Positions 3,222 through 19,576 of a stretch of DNA of 64,000 nucleotides are shown piece after piece. Origin of the DNA: a virus (Duplodnaviria; Caudoviricetes). Each line of letters begins with the position of its first letter. The stretch's first letter is position 1. Location of the stretch: the IMG/VR virus record IMGVR_UViG_3300014205_000182, positions 32,001 to 96,000 of that record, one strand, 5' to 3'. The position numbers were made by a program, and so were the translations under genes. Below the pieces are notes generated by a model that worked only from the letters and a program-made list of their open reading frames with translations, did no database searches and was not told the origin of the DNA.

Positions 3222-3557
3222 ATGGACGAATATGACTGGATCCTGATTGCAGAGCGAGAGATCGCTCGCCCCATTGCCTGTGAGATTCTCAACACATGCG
3301 CCTCGACACGATCAGACCGCCTGATTGCTGTAGCCGACGAGCTAGGACACGACGCCAATAGCGCCGCTGCCGTGCTGGCGGAAATGGCCTGGGGCGAAGC
3401 GGCTCTACATAGAGGGTGGGTGCAAGGCTCGAAAAACATGAAGCTGTACTATGAAATTTGTGCAGAAGCGGAGTCCTTGCTCAGGTGTGGCTGGTTTCCT
3501 GGAGAACCCGTGTTTCTCTATTATGGTGAAGGTGTGATGGTGACCACTCATGACTAA
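3222..3557 (+). CDS. Hypothetical protein
   Basis: ORF starts exactly 6 nt after a -10 box. Confidence 0.6.
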   Translation: MDEYDWILIAEREIARPIACEILNTCASTRSDRLIAVADELGHDANSAAAVLAEMAWGEAALHRGWVQGSKNMKLYYEICAEAESLLRCGWFPGEPVFLYYGEGVMVTTHD

Positions 3558-3923
3558 AGGTTGTCACGGCAAACTTCGTACCCCGCTGGGGAACCGACTA
3601 CTCGTTGCTCTTTCTACGAATCTTGAAGACCCGGAGCTTGTCGAGTGTATGGATAAGCTCAGAACGGTGCCTGCGATGGCAGGAAAGACGGAGGCTGAGA
3701 TGCGAGAGTTCCTGGAACAGTTGATTAGCAGGGTGCCAAACAAGTGCCCGGATTGTGGTGGAAAGAGTGACTAAGTACTTTATTCAGTTCAAGGGTACGT
3801 GCAAGAAGTGCAAACGTGAGGTTGACGTGGTCTCAACAAGCGCTGGCGAGGGGTTGTTCCTATCATACCACTTCAAGCCTGGCACGCTTTCTTTTTGTGA
3901 ATCTTCGCTAGAGGGGTTTAGCC

Positions 3924-9604: not shown

Positions 9605-10062
9605 AGACAATTGCTCTAGTGTTCGGCGAGATGGGTGCTGGTAAATCCTACCTAGCCCAGAAGTTCGCCAATGCCCACGATTTCACGTTCATCGAAGGTG
9701 ACGCTCTATTGCCTGTGGAGATGGCAGAGCGTGTTGCTCGATTCAAAGGTCCCGATGCTGAGATGTTGGAGGACCTGGTTTGGGCGCTGCGTATCAGCGG
9801 GGCTGCGCTAAGTCGTGCCTCTGCGCGTGGGATTGTAATCTCACAAGCACTCTATCGCGACTGTGATCGCAAGAAGATTATCGATTTCTGGAAGCGCTCC
9901 GGCTTCTTCGTCGACACGTATTGGGTACGCGCTCCGTTCTGGAAGAACCTTCGTCAGCTGTGGTCGCGTGAGCGAGGGCTGCGTTGGATCTGGTTCTGGT
10001 TAAAGAGTAAGCTTTTCTTTCAAAAGCCTACGCATTCACACGAGGTATGGGACAATGAGTAA
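9601..10062 (+). CDS. P-loop kinase (gluconate/shikimate kinase-like)
   Basis: Walker A GEMGAGKS followed by FIEGD. Confidence 0.75.
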   Translation: MKTIALVFGEMGAGKSYLAQKFANAHDFTFIEGDALLPVEMAERVARFKGPDAEMLEDLVWALRISGAALSRASARGIVISQALYRDCDRKKIIDFWKRSGFFVDTYWVRAPFWKNLRQLWSRERGLRWIWFWLKSKLFFQKPTHSHEVWDNE

Positions 10063-10408
10063 GCCACATCAAGATTCTATGGGTGTCGACATTCGCGTGG
10101 GTGACTTCCTGGTGTTTGCTGCACCGTCTGGTCGTTCGTCAGCAGAGCTACGTTTTGGGTTCGTCAAAGACCTTCGCTATGAGCGGAAGGACCCAAACGG
10201 TACGCCGAAGCTGGCTGCAATCGTCGCTGAGAAGGGGTATCTGCACGACCCAAAGGGCGGTTATGTGCGAGACCCTTCGGGCGGGCTAGTCCGTGACTGG
10301 GTGCTTTCTCGCACCGGCAGCCTGTGCTCGCTTTACACTCACTACACGCTGGTGGTTCCACCGGAGGTTGTTCCGGGTCGGATTCGTAAGATGATGGTGG
10401 AGGCATGA
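10055..10408 (+). CDS. Hypothetical SH3/KOW-like protein
   Basis: DSMGVDIRVGDFLVFA start common in phage beta-barrel proteins. Confidence 0.55.
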   Translation: MSKPHQDSMGVDIRVGDFLVFAAPSGRSSAELRFGFVKDLRYERKDPNGTPKLAAIVAEKGYLHDPKGGYVRDPSGGLVRDWVLSRTGSLCSLYTHYTLVVPPEVVPGRIRKMMVEA

Positions 10409-10740
10409 TGGGCCACTACGAATGTCGTAAGTGTGACCAGCGTTATGACAAGTGCAGTTGTACTAGGCCGGTTTATCGCCCAGCAGGTGAGGTCAGACTT
10501 TCGCCCGAGCAGATAGTCGATAAAATAATCGATATCCTAGAATCCGAGCCTGCTGAAGAAGCTGTCAAATTGATTAAAGCCAAGTTCAATTACGGTGAGT
10601 GGTACTAAGTAACTGAAATAACTTGTAAAAAATTTTTTGACTTCTACTATTTGAGGAAAATATTTTACATATATAGGGATTTTTATTGTCGTTGCGCCCA
10701 GCCGGGTGGGTCTTAACGTACCCAGGTGCCTTGAACGAGC

Positions 10741-10895
10741 TGGCACGCTTCTTGCACACGTGGCCTTGGCACGCTAGATGCTAGGGGTAAGGTGTTGGCA
10801 CGCAACATTTGAGCTCGCCATGTTGGCACACCCCTTGCCGCGCCCTACCCTTGGCACACTACATGCCCATGGTACTACTTGGCACGAGCATTGCC
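10741..10895 (+). promoter_or_regulatory. Tandem array of six sigma-54 (-24/-12) motifs
   Basis: TGGCAC-N5-(T/A)TGC starting at 10741, 10767, 10796 (degenerate -12), 10824, 10852 and 10880. Confidence 0.75.
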
Positions 10896-11189
10896 ATGGC
10901 CGACCATGGTGCCCGGACCACGAACGGGCGACGCATCGCGGATCGCTTTGTTCGTGTAGTACGCTTCACACAGGGGAACCCACTCCATACCATAGATGCG
11001 AGCGTACTCAGCACGGGCATTGTCATCGCACGCCATAGCAACATCAAGCATGACTGCCAGGGTAGACGGTGCGCTATCCGACTCCGGGCAGTCGCAGATC
11101 AGACCAAGGCAGGGACAGATAAAGAGCGATTCGTAAGCGCCTTCGGTGTTCATACGATGACTCTACAGGAAACAGGTTCCAGTGAAACG

Positions 11190-11216
11190 AAAAACGACCG
11201 AGAGATCTCGGTCGTT
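11190..11216 (-). terminator. Intrinsic terminator
   Basis: AACGACCGAG/CTCGGTCGTT hairpin plus T run, just after the stop of 11242-12603. Confidence 0.75.
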
Positions 11217-11241
11217 ACCCCGGACATAACCGATAGGCCGG

Positions 11242-12603
11242 TTAGGTAAGCTCCAGCATCATAGCGCGCTGAGAAGTGTTATCCAGAGCGGTCACCACGA
11301 GCGCATCGCACGCAGCGATCCGGGCGAGGAAGGCGGAAACGGTATCGGCACCGAGCAGGGTAGCCAGACCATTGCACTCCGACCGCATACGCTCGATACG
11401 CTCGATAAGAGACGCGCCAGCGATACGCTTGAGATCGCCAGACTTGGCTTCGCAATCCTTCTCAAGCCGCGCCAGATCGGCGGTAAACGATTCCGTGAGC
11501 GCGCTTCCGATCGACTCGGTATCCATGTGCGACCAAGCGTAGATCCCACGTCCCATGATCGGCCGGAGGGCAACCACGAGATCGAGCGCGCGAGCGGCAT
11601 TGAACGGCTGAACGTAGATCCCGAGATCCGTGTCACGAGCGCCGTAGTGGTTCACGAGACACGCCATCACACGAGTCTGGAGATCGTCGGATGCGATCAG
11701 GGTATCGCGCACCCGGCGGTTAAAGTCAGCGAGGACCATACGCGCACCCTCGTGATCCGGAGCGTCACACTCGATAACGCCATCGTGCGAGAGGGTGATC
11801 AACGCCTCTTTCGCTCCGAGCGAATCGCTCGCGAGATCGTTATCGAAAAACCCGATCTTCCACGCGCTAGCGTACTTGCCAGCGGTAGGAGCGTTGCGGG
11901 CGACAAAGCCGCCATGGTTGAGGATCTGCGTCGCCTTTCCGAGCAGGCCGACGAGACCGGGTGCGCGGCCAAAGGCCTTCTCAGGCAATCCCAGAGTAAC
12001 GCGCACACTCTCGACGGATGCCCATTCGATCAGTGACTGGCGAGACTTGCCGGAGATCGAGTCAATGACCGTGCGAACCTTGCCAAAGGCGACGATGGTT
12101 CCCACGCCGCTAGCCAGCGTCGGATCAACCACTCGACCATTGTAACCGGCCTGCGTTGCGCCAGCGATGCGAGCCATCGCGGTCGCGGTCGCGATAGCGT
12201 CGGCTGACTGGCTACGAGTCTGCGAACCACCGCGACGGGTGCGGGCGGCACGCGCCGCAACATTCGCGGCACCCTCGTTCGCAACGTTCGTGAGCGCACC
12301 CGTGAGGGTAGACGCGTCAACCGTGCGGGCGATCTGAACGGGTGCAACGGGTGCGACCGGTCCCGGGATCGAATTCATGGTGATCACCATGCGCCGCGTT
12401 TGGCCGGCCAGCTTGACCACGGCACGATCCGACGGAGCGAGAGCAGAGTACACGCTACCAATGGCGCGGAAATCGTTGGAAACGCGGTCACAATCGGCCA
12501 TGGTCTGACAAGCGTTGACGAGCGCCAGACACTCAGAGAGCAGCGACGGGCGAAAAAGGTTGCCGAGGTTAGCGAGGGACATTCCGAGGATCGTGAGGGA
12601 CAT
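11242..12603 (-). CDS. Hypothetical 453-aa protein (putative pre-early)
   Basis: Long ORF with AAAGGA RBS, an upstream TTGACG-17-TAGGAT promoter and a downstream terminator. Confidence 0.8.
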   Translation of the reverse strand: MSLTILGMSLANLGNLFRPSLLSECLALVNACQTMADCDRVSNDFRAIGSVYSALAPSDRAVVKLAGQTRRMVITMNSIPGPVAPVAPVQIARTVDASTLTGALTNVANEGAANVAARAARTRRGGSQTRSQSADAIATATAMARIAGATQAGYNGRVVDPTLASGVGTIVAFGKVRTVIDSISGKSRQSLIEWASVESVRVTLGLPEKAFGRAPGLVGLLGKATQILNHGGFVARNAPTAGKYASAWKIGFFDNDLASDSLGAKEALITLSHDGVIECDAPDHEGARMVLADFNRRVRDTLIASDDLQTRVMACLVNHYGARDTDLGIYVQPFNAARALDLVVALRPIMGRGIYAWSHMDTESIGSALTESFTADLARLEKDCEAKSGDLKRIAGASLIERIERMRSECNGLATLLGADTVSAFLARIAACDALVVTALDNTSQRAMMLELT

Positions 12604-13165
12604 TTTGATTTCCTTTGTTCCGGGTTTCGAGTGGCAAGACCATCCTAGGGATCCTTGTTTCCCACGTCAAGCGCCTAAGAAACTATTTCGTGAGGATCCC
12701 TAGTTCCCTTTTGAAAACCGTGCGGATCTCGTCGACAACATCACAGGCCGGATGATTCGTTTGGAGCCATGCCAGGAATGCGATCCCTAATGTCGCGAAA
12801 CACGCGACCACATACAACCACATGAGGCGAGGATCCGGGATTGTCGCAACCACGGTAGGGTTTTTCCCCGGGCGAACGATCGCGCCATGCCAGGGATCGA
12901 GCCATACGACCACGGCACCCGGACGAACGGTGATTCGGTATGGTGTGCGGGTTTTCAGGACATGTGCGATTTCGTCGCGAGTCAAGATCCTACAGGACAA
13001 ATGGCACTCCACATGCGAGGAGGAAATGGTTGCGTTCCTGGCTAGTACACAAGTCATCCGCTAGCGCATGTGCGACATGGTACACACCGAGCAGGTAGGT
13101 CGGATCCTGACTTGTGCGTCGCGCGCGGTCAATCGCTCGCGCGAGATCGATTTGCTTACGGTTGA

Positions 13166-13330
13166 TCACATGTCACCCGTGGCGTAGCGGATTGCGTGAT
13201 CGAGCCGCACATGTAGCATCGGCCGACTCTGGAATGGATCGCAGATCCGGATTGCCTCGTCGAGTGTGACATGTGCGCCAGCGTAGTTGTTGTTCGTGTA
13301 GACGATACAGAGGGGATTACGCTTTTTCAT
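13166..13330 (-). CDS. Small leaderless ORF (54 aa, MKKRNPLCIVY...)
   Basis: Below the ORF-track cutoff; ATG lies 6 nt after a TACACT -10 box. Confidence 0.5.
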   Translation of the reverse strand: MKKRNPLCIVYTNNNYAGAHVTLDEAIRICDPFQSRPMLHVRLDHAIRYATGDM

Positions 13331-13764
13331 GTCTCCAGTGTAGGCATGTTTTCACTTCACTGGAAACCCTTTTGGGTTATGTGTGGGGTAGCGAATGATT
13401 TCAACAGGTTACACTCGAGCTCGCGATTTCAGCGACTTAGCCTGGCGAGATTCTTGCATTGGTCCGACCGGCTATTTTCCTGCGAATTCGGCAGGATTCT
13501 ACAGTGCCAAACTGGCAAACCTGCGGATTTGGCAGTTCACACTTTACTGTGAACGCCCGTTCATAGTTCAGCGTTATTTGTGTATCGAACCATACCAAAC
13601 AGAGCAGTTTGGGTAGCGTCGGGAAAATATCAGGTACTTAGAGTGTAGGGAATCGCGATCGGACCTAGGGTGTCACCTAGTGACGGGATTATTTTCGTTC
13701 AATGGTGGGCATTCTGTAGCGTCTGAACGAAGGTCCGTTTTTTAGTAAGATGGCACACTAGGAA

Positions 13765-14155
13765 TTCCCTACAGGACACAAATGTCGTGTCGCAGGGTAT
13801 CGGAGCACCCGGGGGTGGGTCCAAACGGACACGGGTCTACCTGGACCCGGATCACCGTGTCATATGATCCGTATGCCATGGGTTCTTTACCCGGGTATAA
13901 AACTACCCACCCGGGTGACACGATACCCTGGTATTTCGATCATATGACATTTCGATCCGGGTCTAAATGGACTCGGGTCCACCGAGACCCGGGTCTAAAT
14001 GGACCCGGACATTCTTGTCCTAGGATCGTAATGCCAGAGTAGATCTTTACCCGGGTGTCTGGTTACCCTGGCATTTGTGTCATAGGATCTAAATGTCATG
14101 TAGGCAAACCGGCGACCTGTACGTGTAGCAGCTTCCGTGCCAAACCGGGTCTACA
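13765..14155. repeat. Non-coding field of dispersed ACCCGGGT / CGGGTCTA / TGTCATA(T/G)GATC motifs
   Basis: Multiple copies on both strands; CCGGGTCTAAATGGAC is duplicated near 13957 and 13989. Confidence 0.6.
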
Positions 14156-14195
14156 TTCAAGTATTGTGCCAAATTCGCGAGCTCAAAATCGGATA

Positions 14196-14340
14196 CTGAA
14201 CACTTGTTCAGTGTGACATCAGGATCATACTGAACGGATGTTCAGGTACTGAACGGATGTTTAGGTACTGAACGGATGTTCAGGTACTGAACGGATGTTC
14301 AGGTACTGAACGGATGTTCAGGTACTGAACGGATGTTCAG
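14196..14340. promoter_or_regulatory. Array of seven LexA-box-like palindromes (CTGAAC-N4-GTTCAG)
   Basis: One copy at 14196 and six in 19-bp tandem at 14230, 14249, 14268, 14287, 14306 and 14325; fits the Myxococcus SOS box consensus. Confidence 0.75.
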
Positions 14341-14346
14341 TGGACA

Positions 14347-14362
14347 TGCAAGCTGCGTGCCA
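14347..14362 (-). promoter_or_regulatory. Consensus sigma-54 site pointing into the LexA-box array
   Basis: TGGCACGCAGCTTGCA on the minus strand. Confidence 0.65.
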
Positions 14363-14574
14363 GCGAGCGAGGGCGCGACGGGGCCGAGCGCGGATTTTCG
14401 CCCGGGAATCGCACGAAATTACCCACTACGCACTGCGTCACGCCTAGTAATTCCAAGGGTTTGAGCTCGCTAATTTCGAGCATTAGCGCACGAATTTCCG
14501 CCTATGGCACTCCGGGCGCCCGACGGTGCGAAACGCTCGCAAATCGAAGCCTATCGCGTCTGAGAGCAAATGAG

Positions 14575-14604
14575 AAAACCCGCCGGGATTTCTCCGGGCG
14601 GGTT
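14575..14604 (-). terminator. Intrinsic terminator
   Basis: AACCCGCC/GGCGGGTT stem with TTTT, downstream of 14626-14865. Confidence 0.65.
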
Positions 14605-15106
14605 AGGTCGCGCTAAGTAGCTGATTTAGTACCAGTAGACTCGCACCGAGTCATCCTCGAAAACCTCGTCGGAGATCGGTTCAGCGACGGAGATGTAACG
14701 AGTGTAACAACGCTTTCCATCGCGCACATGAGCCCAGATCTCCTCACACATGGCCATGTGTCCCGAGGTGGGAGCATTCTCGCGAATCCACACGAGACCG
14801 GCAGCGCACACGAGGGATAGCAGAGTGATTTCGAGGTTGTTGGTTTCCATTCCTCTTTGTCGCACGGAATACCCTACGGGGTCAATACCTTTTGTGCGCG
14901 ATCGTATGCCTCTGAATTGCTCTGCTCAAACTCGGCTTTGGTCGCGCCCATATTCCAGGGCAGTGCCCAACGGTTACGTGCGTTGAGTACCGGCGTACCG
15001 TCTTCGTCGCCACAAACCGCAACGATCGTTGCGACCGTAACCCAAGCGGTTGGAGTAGGGCAGGAATGCGATAGGAGCAGACTGATCGCCCACTGGCCTA
15101 GGATGT

Positions 15107-15352
15107 TCACGCTAGACTCTCGTACAGATCAAAGAGTTGGTCGAGTGACATCCGCTTGAGACGCTTACGCGAAACCTTCGAGGTTTCCCCTGTGAGGTAT
15201 GCGAAAGCATCCTGATCGCTCGTCTCGACGAGGATCGAGTCGATCAGCGCACGCTTGCGCGCCATGCGATCAGACTTGTCAACGGGCAGAACCATCGGGG
15301 AAAACTGCGTAGCCTCGTAAGACTCGCAACGGTTACCGGTACACTTGCTCAT
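15107..15352 (-). CDS. Hypothetical protein
   Basis: AGGAG RBS; coupled to 14874-15110. Confidence 0.55.
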   Translation of the reverse strand: MSKCTGNRCESYEATQFSPMVLPVDKSDRMARKRALIDSILVETSDQDAFAYLTGETSKVSRKRLKRMSLDQLFDLYESLA

Positions 15353-15519
15353 ATGCTCCTATGACGCGTTGAGGGTTTGGGTTCTGACAGGTCCAGGTTA
15401 CGAATAATCGGCGTTACATCCGGGCGCCCACGAGTTGTCGCACGTCCGGACTCTGGCGTCTACAAAAATCGCAGAAAGATCGCCAGAAACGAGCTCGCCA
15501 GCCTAACCCCTCGAGATTA

Positions 15520-16338
15520 CTAGGGAATTACTGCCAGAGCCGCAACGCGCTTTGCTTTGCTCTGGGATCGCATTCCATGCTCTACGAGGTAGACGCTTGC
15601 ACGACTGCTCTTACCCTGCACTCCGTTACAGATTCCGCAACGGTCGCACGTAAGCGGGTTCTGCTCTCTGGTAGCAGGACACTGGACCATGCCAGCGGGG
15701 ATCTCAGTACCCTCGGGCACTGCCAGGAATTTACGCCAGCCGAGCATGTCGGCGGTAGCAACATCCCGAGTGGAATCACAGCTTGCCATGATGTTATCGC
15801 GAAACCAGAATGCCGATTCCATGTGGCGTGCGCTCATACCGTCGACGAGATCGGTAATCGGTCCGCACGGAATCGAGCGCCACTGGTGCGTGTACCCGAC
15901 GACACTACGAGGCATGAGAGCAGAGATCAGATCCTGCCAAACCTCGAAGGGAACCGCCATCGGATCCCCGTAGCTACCGAGCCGCAGGCCATGGTCGCGC
16001 GCGTCCTGCGTCATACGGAGGATTTGCGTAGGGTCCGCCCAATTACTGCCAGGGAATCCCGATCGCTCCCACGCAAGCCAAACGCTACGTGGTGCGTGTA
16101 CGATTTGCACGTAGCAATCCCCTCCCAAGGCATGGCGACGAGGACACAGGCCGCACACCGATTCATCGGCTTTCGTAGCTGAAGCTTCAGAGGGATGCAT
16201 ATCGGCACGCATGATCCAAGTCTGAACCATGCTACCCGTCTTGACGTTCGAAGATCCGACGCTTGCCAGGCAAACGATCGGCGAACCATCGATCATGCTC
16301 GGGCCATGGTAGATCACGATGGGAGTGGTCACAAACAT
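15520..16338 (-). CDS. Cys-rich conserved phage protein, radical-SAM-like
   Basis: NVKTGSMVQ, VCGLCP..CYV, LRLGSYGDP, GYTHQW, CPA..TCDRCGIC. Start moved to ATG 16338 after AGGAG. Confidence 0.7.
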   Translation of the reverse strand: MFVTTPIVIYHGPSMIDGSPIVCLASVGSSNVKTGSMVQTWIMRADMHPSEASATKADESVCGLCPRRHALGGDCYVQIVHAPRSVWLAWERSGFPGSNWADPTQILRMTQDARDHGLRLGSYGDPMAVPFEVWQDLISALMPRSVVGYTHQWRSIPCGPITDLVDGMSARHMESAFWFRDNIMASCDSTRDVATADMLGWRKFLAVPEGTEIPAGMVQCPATREQNPLTCDRCGICNGVQGKSSRASVYLVEHGMRSQSKAKRVAALAVIP

Positions 16339-16699
16339 GCTCCTAGGCAAGAATCTCCGACGATCATTGCGAGAAAAACCGCGACCGACGCGATGGCACG
16401 CGTCCATTTCTGATCCACTAGTTCACTCCAAGATCTTCGACAGGAGGAACCCAGGAATCCGCGTAACCCTCGCGCGTTTCCGGTCCGTTGATCGGTGCAG
16501 CTTGCACGTAGGGGACCGGCTGATCATTCTCGTCGAGAACGGTAACACGAGCAGCAATCGAATTGCTCGCGTTAACCATACCAGCGTCGAGAAGATCCAA
16601 CGCGAATTGCATGAGGATCAGACACCGAGGACAATCACAGTATTTGAGGGACATGGGATCACCTTAGAGACGTGGTGAGATGTTGTCAATGGGCGAAAT

Positions 16700-17169
16700 T
16701 CAGCGAGGAGCGATCACTCGGTGGTTCCACCATGGCGGAAGCTGACGATCTGCCAAACGCAGATGCATCGCGTTGCAAGCGGCAAGCGGTACACCATGCG
16801 TGTTTCGCTTCGCACCGATCGCTGGGTCACAATCTAGCGTCACGATCTCCAATTCGTGACCGTACGCCAAAGCCAGAGCGGCATACGGCGCGATTTCTGC
16901 CACGGTCGTGTTCGTGTTATCGACCACAACATCCGGAATCCAGGTACCGGATTTCCAGTCTGCCGTGATATGTCCCACGAAATCCCGGAGGCATTTTGCG
17001 TGCGCCTTTGACAGTAACATCGCGTTGAAAATTGGCGTAGCTTGCATCTTATCATCGGTGTACAAACCGGGATACTTATCGGCCGAACAAACCAGAGCAT
17101 CCGGTGGTTCTTGCGCGTGTATGTCGACTTACCAGATCCGGGAATGCCGCAAAGAATTGTGATCTTCAT
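16700..17169 (-). pseudogene. AAA_33/polynucleotide-kinase-like gene split by a frameshift near 17103
   Basis: Walker A GIPGSGKST is in one frame; VCSAD..VVVDNTN..RNTHGVP is in another. One C appears to be missing in CACC(C)GGAT. Confidence 0.75.
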
Positions 17170-17611
17170 GTGCAGACCACACTACGCATTGCGGGGATCG
17201 CTGTCAAACGAAAAATCGCCTCCATGGCGAGCTCGAGCGCAACCTGCTGTAATCACTAGCGAATTACGATTGTGTCTTGACAGATCCCTGCGTCGTTTCC
17301 AGAGTGGATCGCACAATGGAAACGCAAAAAATGCTCGTCGAGATCACGATTCCGGCCGACATGTCAGACGGTGAATTGCTGGAGAAAATCCAGGAGCTTG
17401 CGCAGGAATGTGCAGAGGCTTTTTGGGAGGGAGACGAGGATTTCCCATCGACACTGGCAAGTGAAATTTCCGACTCGTGTACGGTAGTTTCTGAGGACAA
17501 CTGGGAGATCGTCTCGCGCGAGTAACTGATCCTTCGTTCAGTGGCTACTCGACCTTCCAGTGACGTGACAAGTAGTCACATACCCTGCCAGTGAAAACCA
17601 AAAGTTAGCTC

Positions 17612-18041
17612 TGGCATAACGACTGCACAAAGAATCCTCATGACCAATCCCGCCGATAAGAAGCGCGACCACGAAAACACTGCCCTCGCCTGGCTCGCTG
17701 TTTGGCGTACGTGCGACGAAAGCACGATCGGTGCCAAGCAACTTGCTCTGGCTCTGGCAGATCTTCACATGGACGCTGCCGACGAGTGTGCTATTGACGC
17801 ATACTGTCAGGAAGTCAGCGCACGCTAGAAAAACTCGAAATCCTCCGCGCCCGTGCCAAGCGTGCGCAACGTAGCATGGATCGTGCCACGCTCGCCCTGC
17901 AGCGGCACTACGTGAAGTCTGGCATGGATATTGCCAGAGCGGGCGGCGCTCGACGACTTGGCCTAGCAAGCCCCGTGCCAACCGGAAATAAGGAGGTCCT
18001 TATTCAAAATCCGGGCCAAAAGTTGTGGCACGATTTTTGCA
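17612..18041. promoter_or_regulatory. Second cluster of sigma-54 motifs, mixed orientation
   Basis: 17612(+), 17873-17888(-), 17920(+, also readable on -), 17965-17980(-) and 18026(+ TGGCACGATTTTTGCA). Confidence 0.7.
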
Positions 18042-18324
18042 CCGGCGTGCGGGTCGCGCGGGCGCCCGGCCGGCGCGGCGGTCGACCAAAGCCCGGCACC
18101 TGTTATTTAGGGAGGTCACGTCTGTATATATAGCGCTAGCGCTTATTTACTATATAGGGGCGCCAATTTCCTTATATATAGCGCTGGGTTGTCAATAAAT
18201 GCGCAAGTTGTGCATTAATAGGGTTTGTGTCAGGTTTAGTGTTAGATTTGAGACCCCACCAGGGGGTTTTAGGTGTGGTTTGGATTTCGCCTCAAAATCA
18301 ACACAAATTCCTCCTCTGCCCAGA

Positions 18325-18740
18325 GTGACCTCGGTTAGAAAAGTGACCTTGGTTGGAAAAGTGACCTTGGTTGGAAAAGTGACTCGCGCTAGAAATCTAA
18401 CAGTGACTCACGTTAGAAATCCAGCAGTGACTCGTGTTAGAAATCTCCCATGATTGCTCGCAATCGCGCAAGTGATTCATCGCAGCGTTTCTGCCAGGCG
18501 GTGAACCAGGTTAGAAAATCTTGGTCGGTCTGGATTCTGGTGATGGAAACCACTTCAATAGTTGTTGTAGTTCGCATGAGTGACTTTCGTTAGAAGTTTC
18601 AGGTGCTTTCAAACTTCATTGAAACTTTTAAAAGGTTTGAATGCTATGTAACAAAACGTTACTATTGCTGGGAAAATTGGATCAAATCAAGTACTTAGAC
18701 CTGCTCCAAAATGGAGCAGTTCGTGACCTCGGTTAGAAAT
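18325..18740 (+). repeat. Iteron-like direct repeats GTGAC-N4-GTTAGAAA
   Basis: Copies at 18325, 18343, 18361, 18379, 18403 and 18427, with outliers at 18501, 18580 and 18723 around an AT-rich tract. Confidence 0.8.
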
Positions 18741-19576
18741 TAGTCATCAGCGCTCGTATATCGTTTGGGCTCCCACTTCCTGCTAGAAGAGTTGTACTCC
18801 CAACCAAGATAGGTCATGTCGTTACGTAACACCTGCTGGATTTTCGTAGAACTGATGAACTTACCGTGATACGCAACTACTACATCCTGAAACTTCACCT
18901 GATAAATACCTGCTTTGATGTAGTCGGATAGAACTTTCGCAGTACGTTCTCGACGTAACTTAATCAAGTGAGGGGTGATGGATTTTATTGGAGTATTTCG
19001 TTCTGATGGTGTTTGGTAGTGCTTGTACGGTCTGCCTGTTAAGGTGTGTTTCTTCAACGGGTTCCAGCGCCAGACAGAGTGAATTGTCTTAGATTTTCCT
19101 GAGTCAGACTTCCTGTATTCCAGCATGGGGTACCAGTGAAGGCTATTTAGTAAAATCTCAGGTTCCATGTCCATGTACTGCTTTGGCCATGTACCTGCCC
19201 AGGCTTTCATCGTGAAGGCCGGATTAGCTTGTAGCCACGCTCTACGGTCGTGACCAGGGTTAGGGTCATGGTCGATTAGCACTGGAGTACCCTCCCAGTC
19301 GCTCCTAGTGACCGTGGTTCGATTTTTAGGGTCTGCCGCGTCGTAGTCCGCCACCCACTTCCAAATCTGCTCAGGCGTCAGCTTATCGACGCCCCAGGTC
19401 CACGCGTGCTCCGAAAGCTTGGCCAGGTCGTTGACCATCTCAGCCGTAGGATTATTAGACGACATTGCCAATTCTAAGGTACCTGTCGAGACACCTAGCG
19501 CTCTGGCTATGACAGGCACTGTCAGTTTGCCTTGACAGAAATGTTTGAGTAAGTGGAGTCCGAATGATTCAGTCAT
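18740..19576 (-). CDS. HTH-containing DNA-binding protein, candidate origin or repeat binder
   Basis: N-terminal XRE-like LTVPVIARALGVSTGTL; wing-like C-terminus; ends directly at the repeat array. Confidence 0.6.
   Translation of the reverse strand: MTESFGLHLLKHFCQGKLTVPVIARALGVSTGTLELAMSSNNPTAEMVNDLAKLSEHAWTWGVDKLTPEQIWKWVADYDAADPKNRTTVTRSDWEGTPVLIDHDPNPGHDRRAWLQANPAFTMKAWAGTWPKQYMDMEPEILLNSLHWYPMLEYRKSDSGKSKTIHSVWRWNPLKKHTLTGRPYKHYQTPSERNTPIKSITPHLIKLRRERTAKVLSDYIKAGIYQVKFQDVVVAYHGKFISSTKIQQVLRNDMTYLGWEYNSSSRKWEPKRYTSADD

Follow-up and report, generated by a model that had tools for sequence, protein, structure and literature searches.

The array and its neighbours

The window, the whole 64,000-nt stretch of DNA analysed here, covers bases 32001-96000 of a 143.7-kb IMG/VR virus record that is estimated to be 90% complete and that encodes a large terminase, portal, tail sheath, rIIA/rIIB, ligase and primase-helicase. 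A search of a phage collection returned no close relative, either by DNA or by the 453-aa protein described below, and a search of viral contigs for similar loci was equally unproductive. The nearest named terminase matches were at most 33% identical and came from mixed hosts, and do not establish a Myxococcus host. The one sequencing run listed as containing the sequence is a landfill metagenome DNA run, its probable source; no RNA run is listed. A long plus-strand operon of small genes, the ligase included, ends at 10608, and an array of six short sites resembling sigma-54 promoters starts about 130 bp later, running up to and into a converging minus-strand ORF. The features of this junction are as follows.

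10609..10698, plus strand: AT-rich spacer after the plus-strand operon, containing a conserved AAAATATTTTAC block (10657-10668)
10699..10727, plus strand: GC-rich dyad of the GGGT-N8-ACCC type, upstream of the array
10729..10740, plus strand: box CCTTGAACGAGC, abutting unit 1 on its upstream side and kept in related contigs L193, L194, L196 and L197
10741..10756, plus strand: array unit 1, TGGCACGCTTCTTGCA, a flawless sigma-54 -24/-12 core with a predicted start at about 10767
10767..10782, plus strand: array unit 2, TGGCACGCTAGATGCT
10796..10811, plus strand: array unit 3, TGGCACGCAACATTTG, with a complete -24 half and no -12 GC
10824..10839, plus strand: array unit 4, TGGCACACCCCTTGCC
10852..10867, plus strand: array unit 5, TGGCACACTACATGCC, with a predicted start at about 10878, at the stop codon of the converging ORF
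10880..10895, plus strand: array unit 6, TGGCACGAGCATTGCC, with a predicted start at about 10906, 31 nt within the 92-aa ORF
10875..11153, minus strand: Cys-rich ORF of 92 aa, the immediate antisense target of the array
11193..11216, minus strand: intrinsic terminator after the 453-aa gene, a 10-bp stem plus a T run
11242..12603, minus strand: gene for a 453-aa protein, conserved in relatives and used as the query to find them
12642..12670, minus strand: sigma-70-like promoter TTGACG-17-TAGGAT before the 453-aa gene, a consensus match only
14347..14362, minus strand: consensus sigma-54 site, followed by seven CTGAAC-N4-GTTCAG palindromes

The array had been described as six head-to-tail units at 10741-10895 on the plus strand, spaced 26, 29, 28, 28 and 28 bp, and this arrangement stands except that unit 3 is without the -12 GC. 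When the six units were aligned, every one of them had TGGCAC and a T at position 13, five had the T before it, five had the GC of positions 14-15, and the remaining columns, spacer and linker alike, looked random, in agreement with the earlier remark that conservation is limited to the -24/-12 positions. TGGCAC-N6-TGC is present in five of six units, at the GG/GC spacing of the sigma-54 consensus. The units retain 51 of 54 core bases (TGGCAC plus TGC, six units) despite linkers that have diverged to random, which argues that each unit in the window is under selection. Since TGGCAC occurs only about once per 2.1 kb per strand in this genome, six copies on the same strand at a regular period within 155 bp lie far beyond chance. 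Tandem Repeats Finder did not call the array region, a result that fits the diverged linkers. Because the period of the units equals the length from -26 to about +1, each predicted start meets the -24 box of the next unit. Unit 1 is near-identical to the minus-strand site at 14347-14362, and unit 6 overlaps the final codons of the 92-aa ORF on the minus strand; the first of the predicted starts lies 108 nt short of that ORF and the last 31 nt within it.

Upstream of the array, the CCTTGAACGAGC box is the single mismatch-free occurrence in the window, and the AT-rich spacer contains sigma-70-like hexamers at 10637-10666. Dyads similar to the GC-rich dyad at 10699-10727 stand at the equivalent place in L193 and L194, and a regulator may act at this dyad. 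Dyads of the CCCGGGT type are clustered at 13793-14060, and one of them (13889-13917) is 72% complementary to the dyad upstream of the array, and the two may represent a shared regulator site. Another short sequence, TTGAGCTCGC, occurs without mismatch at 10809, 14177 (minus) and 14461 (plus), with variants at 13415 and 17227. Two of its copies touch sigma-54-type sites, one at the 3' part of unit 3 and one at the weak site 14156-14171; its count across the window is not above chance, and it is notable by placement only.

We then considered what the array could transcribe. The 92-aa ORF has a codon score of 0.21 per codon, on par with true genes, and has homologues in L194, L196, L199 and L200 on the same strand as the homologue of the 453-aa protein; both results argue that it is a genuine gene, and its product gave no Pfam or PHROG match. 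All ORFs downstream of the array on the plus strand scored negative by codon use, bearing out the preliminary remark that there is no clear gene to drive. With the 92-aa minus-strand ORF real and the plus-strand frames non-coding, the array therefore occupies a convergent gap without a co-oriented gene, and neither the co-oriented downstream gene nor the RNA product that would mark a sigma-54 promoter was found there. A protein gene antisense to the operon and driven by the array was considered and rejected: the long plus-strand frames opposite the 453-aa gene show a similarity that only shadows the sense coding, and stop codons interrupt these frames in L194, L197 and L200. RNA folding of the array was unusual on neither strand (z of -1.75 and -0.96), so we dropped a reading as a structured or sponge RNA, and an Rfam scan of 10000-19000 returned no family and one sub-threshold chance match. 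The 453-aa protein likewise had no Pfam or PHROG match; a Foldseek search with its AlphaFold model (of moderate confidence, pLDDT 71.7) found nothing at E <= 0.001, and VIA-align gave just a generic C-terminal helical bundle.

Sigma-54-type sites across the phage

TGGCAC-N6-TGC occurs 23 times in the whole phage versus once in a reversed-sequence control. About ten of these sites lie 13-90 nt before called genes, including those for the portal and tail sheath, and a related contig also has a site directly before its portal gene. On the strength of this enrichment and placement, the phage appears to use sigma-54-type promoters. Conservation within the motif is asymmetric, covering seven to eight bases in the left element and three in the right one, which points to the sigma-54 pattern rather than to a dimeric operator. 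The 23-fold enrichment, the asymmetry and the retention of sites while the flanks diverge among relatives all uphold the proposal that the boxes are sigma-54 sites under selection. The sigma-54 consensus, attributed to Barrios et al. in 1999, is reportedly TGGCACG-N4-TTGCW; unit 1 matches it perfectly and units 2 and 6 are one position off. The array thus resembles bacterial RpoN -24/-12 promoters such as glnAp2 and pspA in having the same bipartite core at the exact spacing. Unlike these, it consists of six head-to-tail copies at a promoter-length period, is carried on a phage, and stands without a co-oriented gene, a recognisable activator gene or an upstream activator site.

We looked among the phage's own proteins for a reader of these sites and found none that matched the DNA-binding or the activator-interacting domain of sigma-54, or the enhancer-binding-protein ATPase families PF00158 and PF14532. 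The phage does encode two sigma-70-family (Sigma70_r2) factors, at G000:C1:118856-119053 and 15746-15910, outside the window. Its single classic AAA (PF00004) protein, of 397 aa (G000:C1:112985-114178, also outside the window), has an N-terminal half of unknown nature and no GAFTGA motif, and by Pfam is not of the enhancer-binding-protein type; it is the sole AAA+ candidate that could act on polymerase. No upstream activator motif or k-mer was common to the sigma-54 sites of the phage. Because the phage has no recognisable sigma-54 or enhancer-binding protein of its own, host sigma-54 holoenzyme is the likely reader of the motif, and we infer from the motif that this holoenzyme likely binds the array.

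The units could instead be operators or iterons of a phage DNA-binding protein, forming an origin, a partition site or a repressor array that is sigma-54-like by resemblance. The AT-rich block adjoins the direct repeats, units 4-6 form GGCA-N8-TGCC dyads, the same segment also holds palindromes (14196-14340) and iterons (18325-18738), and the two sigma-70-family factors offer possible readers. However, the asymmetric conservation is unlike that of a symmetric dimer, units 1-3 are not dyads, the motif stands before the genes for the portal and sheath too, the array has no replication or partition gene next to it, and a gap of 5 nt between the two elements is at odds with the -35/-10 spacing that sigma-70-family factors require. 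We regard binding by such a protein as highly unlikely. The iteron-like repeats comprise nine direct copies of GTGACYNNNGTTRGAA at 18325-18738, beside AT-rich palindromic DNA at 18100-18200, and this sequence occurs 15 times in the window versus 0.26 expected. The region is likely an origin or partition site of the iteron type, and as an origin it is a stronger candidate than the array of sigma-54-type sites.

The strict sites are unevenly distributed, with 12 of the 23 falling within 10741-18041, a gene-poor segment of 7.3 kb. The 29-bp minus-strand pair that the preliminary description placed at 14127-14171 is real, with the reservation that its second member is weak at -12 (TTGAA for TTGC). 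Directly downstream of the consensus site at 14347-14362 are the seven CTGAAC-N4-GTTCAG palindromes (14196-14340), six of them with a 19-bp period, an arrangement suggestive of operators covering the point where a sigma-54 transcript starts. A second sigma-54-type cluster on both strands at 17612-18041 (17612 plus, 17736 minus, 17888 minus, a 17920 plus/17936 minus palindrome, 17980 minus and 18026 plus) faces the array from the opposite end of the gene-poor segment. Outside the window, at G000:C1:139078-139111, two consensus sites, TGGCACACATTTTGCA on the plus strand and TGGCACATATCTTGCA on the minus strand, oppose each other, their -12 ends overlapping, immediately ahead of the tail-sheath gene.

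The junction in related contigs and arrays in other phages

Relatives of the locus were short metagenome contigs bearing homologues of the 453-aa protein (43-59% identity). Their sigma-54-type sites lie just past the 3' end of the operon of this homologue, on the opposite strand and aimed back into the operon, in the following numbers.

L193: two tandem sites plus one in the gap, spacing 27 bp
L194: eight tandem sites in the gap, six of them near-identical, spacing 26-29 bp
L195: three sites in the gap, spacing 67 and 171 bp
L196: three sites in the gap, spacing 46 and 27 bp
L197: four sites in the gap, spacing 49, 81 and 327 bp
L199: no sites in the gap

Contig L200 ends too early to show gap sites. 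L193 is syntenic over more than 10 kb, and its ligase operon converges as in the window. An alignment of six junctions revealed a common order of AT-rich block, GC-rich dyad, CCTTGAxCxAGC box and sites, in which the TGGCA...TGC columns were invariant versus a mean column identity of 43%. Unit 1 is homologous to the first site of L193, L194, L196 and L197, and unit 2 has an aligned counterpart, the second site, in all six junctions. In the window and in L194, L195, L196 and L197, the predicted start of the last tandem site falls 12-43 nt inside the converging ORF. The gap sites of the related contigs indicate that the element is conserved in place and direction with a fluid copy number, from 0 to 8, and the conserved orientation may come in part from common descent of the first sites. 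A metagenome scan for the junction box plus first site gave 47 matches, all of them chance matches in GC-rich coding DNA and none a relative.

The contigs also suggest how the array may have arisen. Six units of the L194 array are near-identical in core and linker, TGGCACGACAC[T/G]TGCAcactag, which has the appearance of recent slippage; by the same comparison, the array in the window appears to be an older one in which only functional positions survived. In L193 a (GGGCCTRA)n simple repeat of about 130 bp (3470-3600, minus strand) comes after the two tandem sites and is unrelated to them, and its place beside the sites suggests a spot prone to slippage. The third site of L193, at 3356, is followed after 45 nt by a co-oriented ORF of 70 aa, for which the window has no equivalent. 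In L194 (1115-1157) and L196 (90-132), sense-strand sigma-54 pairs with a 27-bp tandem spacing lie upstream of the operon of the 453-aa homologue, so that this operon may be bracketed by converging sigma-54 promoters.

One account of these variations is that only one or two sites work as a promoter and that the rest are slippage by-products, with copy number nearly neutral and multiplicity without function. It would explain the six near-identical units among the eight of L194, the range of copy number among relatives and the simple repeat right behind the two sites of L193. The window, however, keeps its core bases while its linkers are randomised, and diverged-linker arrays recur in about 30 unrelated viral contigs and never with a control pattern. 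A functionless multiplicity consequently seems distinctly improbable to us.

The recurrence of such arrays was established by scanning IMG/VR for three TGGCAC-N6-TGC units 24-30 bp apart, which yielded 67 loci, about half of them perfect coding-type repeats. The non-redundant viral arrays with diverged linkers, about 30 in all, have periods of 24-29 bp and a near-perfect consensus; almost all are intergenic, most before co-oriented genes and about five directed against their neighbours. A complement control pattern gave 5 loci, all perfect 24- or 27-bp repeats, and no diverged-linker arrays. In 596 Gb of bacterial and archaeal genomes there were 42 loci, just 2 with diverged linkers, and one of those 2 bacterial arrays shares an array family with three viral loci. 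The array in the window belongs to this class, having at least three head-to-tail sites with a 24-30 bp period and diverged linkers in intergenic phage DNA. Pfam analysis of the first genes downstream of ten arrays in other phages found no family in common. A full-text literature search recovered single phage promoters and enterobacterial intragenic or antisense sites but no account of such arrays; tandem sigma-54 arrays are frequent in uncultured phages, nearly absent from bacteria and apparently unpublished.

We weighed two readings in which the array binds holoenzyme for purposes other than transcription. In the first, it is a landing pad or sink that holds scarce sigma-54 holoenzymes as closed complexes, as a decoy against the host or as a local store for the phage, with transcription secondary. 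Packing at 26-29 bp, roughly one full promoter length, with no gene to express, would suit such a role, as would the concentration of strict sites in the gene-poor segment, the lack of an activator encoded by the phage and the near-confinement of such arrays to viral contigs. Sigma-54 holoenzyme is bound at promoters in an inactive state, and decoy roles of non-canonical sites have been discussed (PMC4591121). However, draining sigma-54 would harm a phage whose own portal and sheath genes seem to rely on this motif; several relatives manage with 0-3 sites, often 46-81 bp apart; the conserved orientation and abutment to the ORF end are needless for a sink; and arrays of other phages mostly head co-oriented genes. 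The decoy function put forward in the preliminary description is thus not supported by the structural-gene sites, the conserved placement or the variable copy number, and we consider a sink of either kind unlikely.

In the second, closed sigma-54 complexes act as a roadblock or insulator against read-through from the ligase operon on the plus strand and the 92-aa gene on the minus strand. The array does extend from about 130 bp past the plus-strand operon to the stop codon of the minus-strand ORF, and we found no intrinsic terminator at 10608-10875 on either strand, nor one for a plus-strand RNA; the terminator at 11193-11216 has no T run when read on the plus strand. Roadblock repression was tested in E. 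coli, where intragenic bound sigma-54 holoenzyme, at single sites, left the overlapping genes unaffected, and the authors considered this mode effectively ruled out at such sites (PMC4591121). In other phages, moreover, the gaps that hold arrays are mostly divergent or co-directional, and a roadblock would have little purpose there. These results speak against the roadblock that had been offered as an alternative to the decoy, and we assign it very little probability.

Proposed antisense promoters at the junction and their implications

The explanation that we tentatively favour, from the placement and conservation of the sites, is a cluster of sigma-54 promoters, expanded by slippage, whose products are antisense or convergent to the 92-aa/453-aa operon. 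The array would have grown by local duplication from a conserved one- or two-site promoter, of the same class as those the phage appears to use for its structural genes, and each copy would then have been held by selection on its -24/-12 positions. Placed at the junction of converging units, the cluster would direct transcription into the operon from its 3' end once the bound sigma-54 holoenzyme has been remodelled by an activator, either of the host or an unrecognised one of the phage. Transcripts begun at the predicted positions, about 10767-10906, would be antisense to the 92-aa gene, probably to the 453-aa gene too, and would lower operon expression via base pairing or head-on transcriptional interference. 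Multiple sites would improve the odds that a scarce sigma-54 holoenzyme is poised at the array. The placement of most arrays in other phages ahead of co-oriented genes, as expected of promoters, is consistent with antisense promoters here. Holoenzyme binding, firing and an effect on the operon are each inferred from these patterns, and finding no activator gene, shared upstream activator motif or plus-strand terminator counts against the antisense promoters. A polymerase started at an upstream unit must pass the complexes bound ahead of it, so that the output of the six sites need not be additive. The region of the 453-aa operon also has sigma-54-type sites on its own strand (14142, 14171 and 14362; 17736-17980), so a simple scheme in which late transcription shuts off early transcription is not established.

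The antisense promoters that we favour have partial counterparts elsewhere. In phage lambda, the pO promoter and its OOP RNA are antisense to the 3' end of cII, with one sigma-70 promoter and a defined terminator. The array, like those of L194-L197, resembles pO/OOP by geometry only, as a convergent promoter beyond the 3' end of a gene whose predicted RNA overlaps the end of the ORF. Unlike OOP, it has six sigma-54-type promoters and no plus-strand terminator that we could find, and its transcript is a prediction. Sigma-54 sites that are intragenic or antisense occur in E. coli and Salmonella (Bonocora et al. 2015, PMC4591121; Samuels et al. 2013, PMC3844500), where antisense RNA, transcriptional interference and decoys were among the proposed roles and active antisense promoters in E. 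coli were left open as regulators (PMC4591121). The array is similar to those sites in lying far from the start of a co-oriented gene, and some of them are antisense to genes; they are single and scattered over the chromosome, whereas the array has six units, stands at the 3' end of an operon and is kept in related phages. Pseudomonas phage YuA uses a host sigma-54-type promoter (Ceyssens et al. 2008, via bioRxiv 10.1101/2023.10.13.562163); a single sigma-54-like promoter region is described for it, with no tandem array or antisense placement reported, in contrast to the six-unit array of the window.

A more far-reaching view, which we hold to be doubtful, is that close-packed sites at a promoter-length period are a dedicated phage device for capturing the scarce sigma-54 polymerase of the host on phage DNA without a classical activator, deployed here against an operon as a switchable antisense silencer. 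If true, it would imply an as yet unknown phage route to activate or exploit sigma-54 closed complexes. Sigma-54 transcription is generally regarded as requiring an AAA+ activator in every case, and few studies have addressed it in phages. Many uncultured phages, the present one included, seem to put sigma-54 sites before structural genes and to pile them up in arrays of a kind that bacteria hardly ever have, yet encode no recognisable activator. Were the arrays to bind holoenzyme without firing, they would constitute a natural sigma-factor sink. If they bind holoenzyme and fire, they would show how phages recruit a minor form of the host polymerase, and the array described here would represent conserved antisense control of a phage operon by sigma-54 polymerase.
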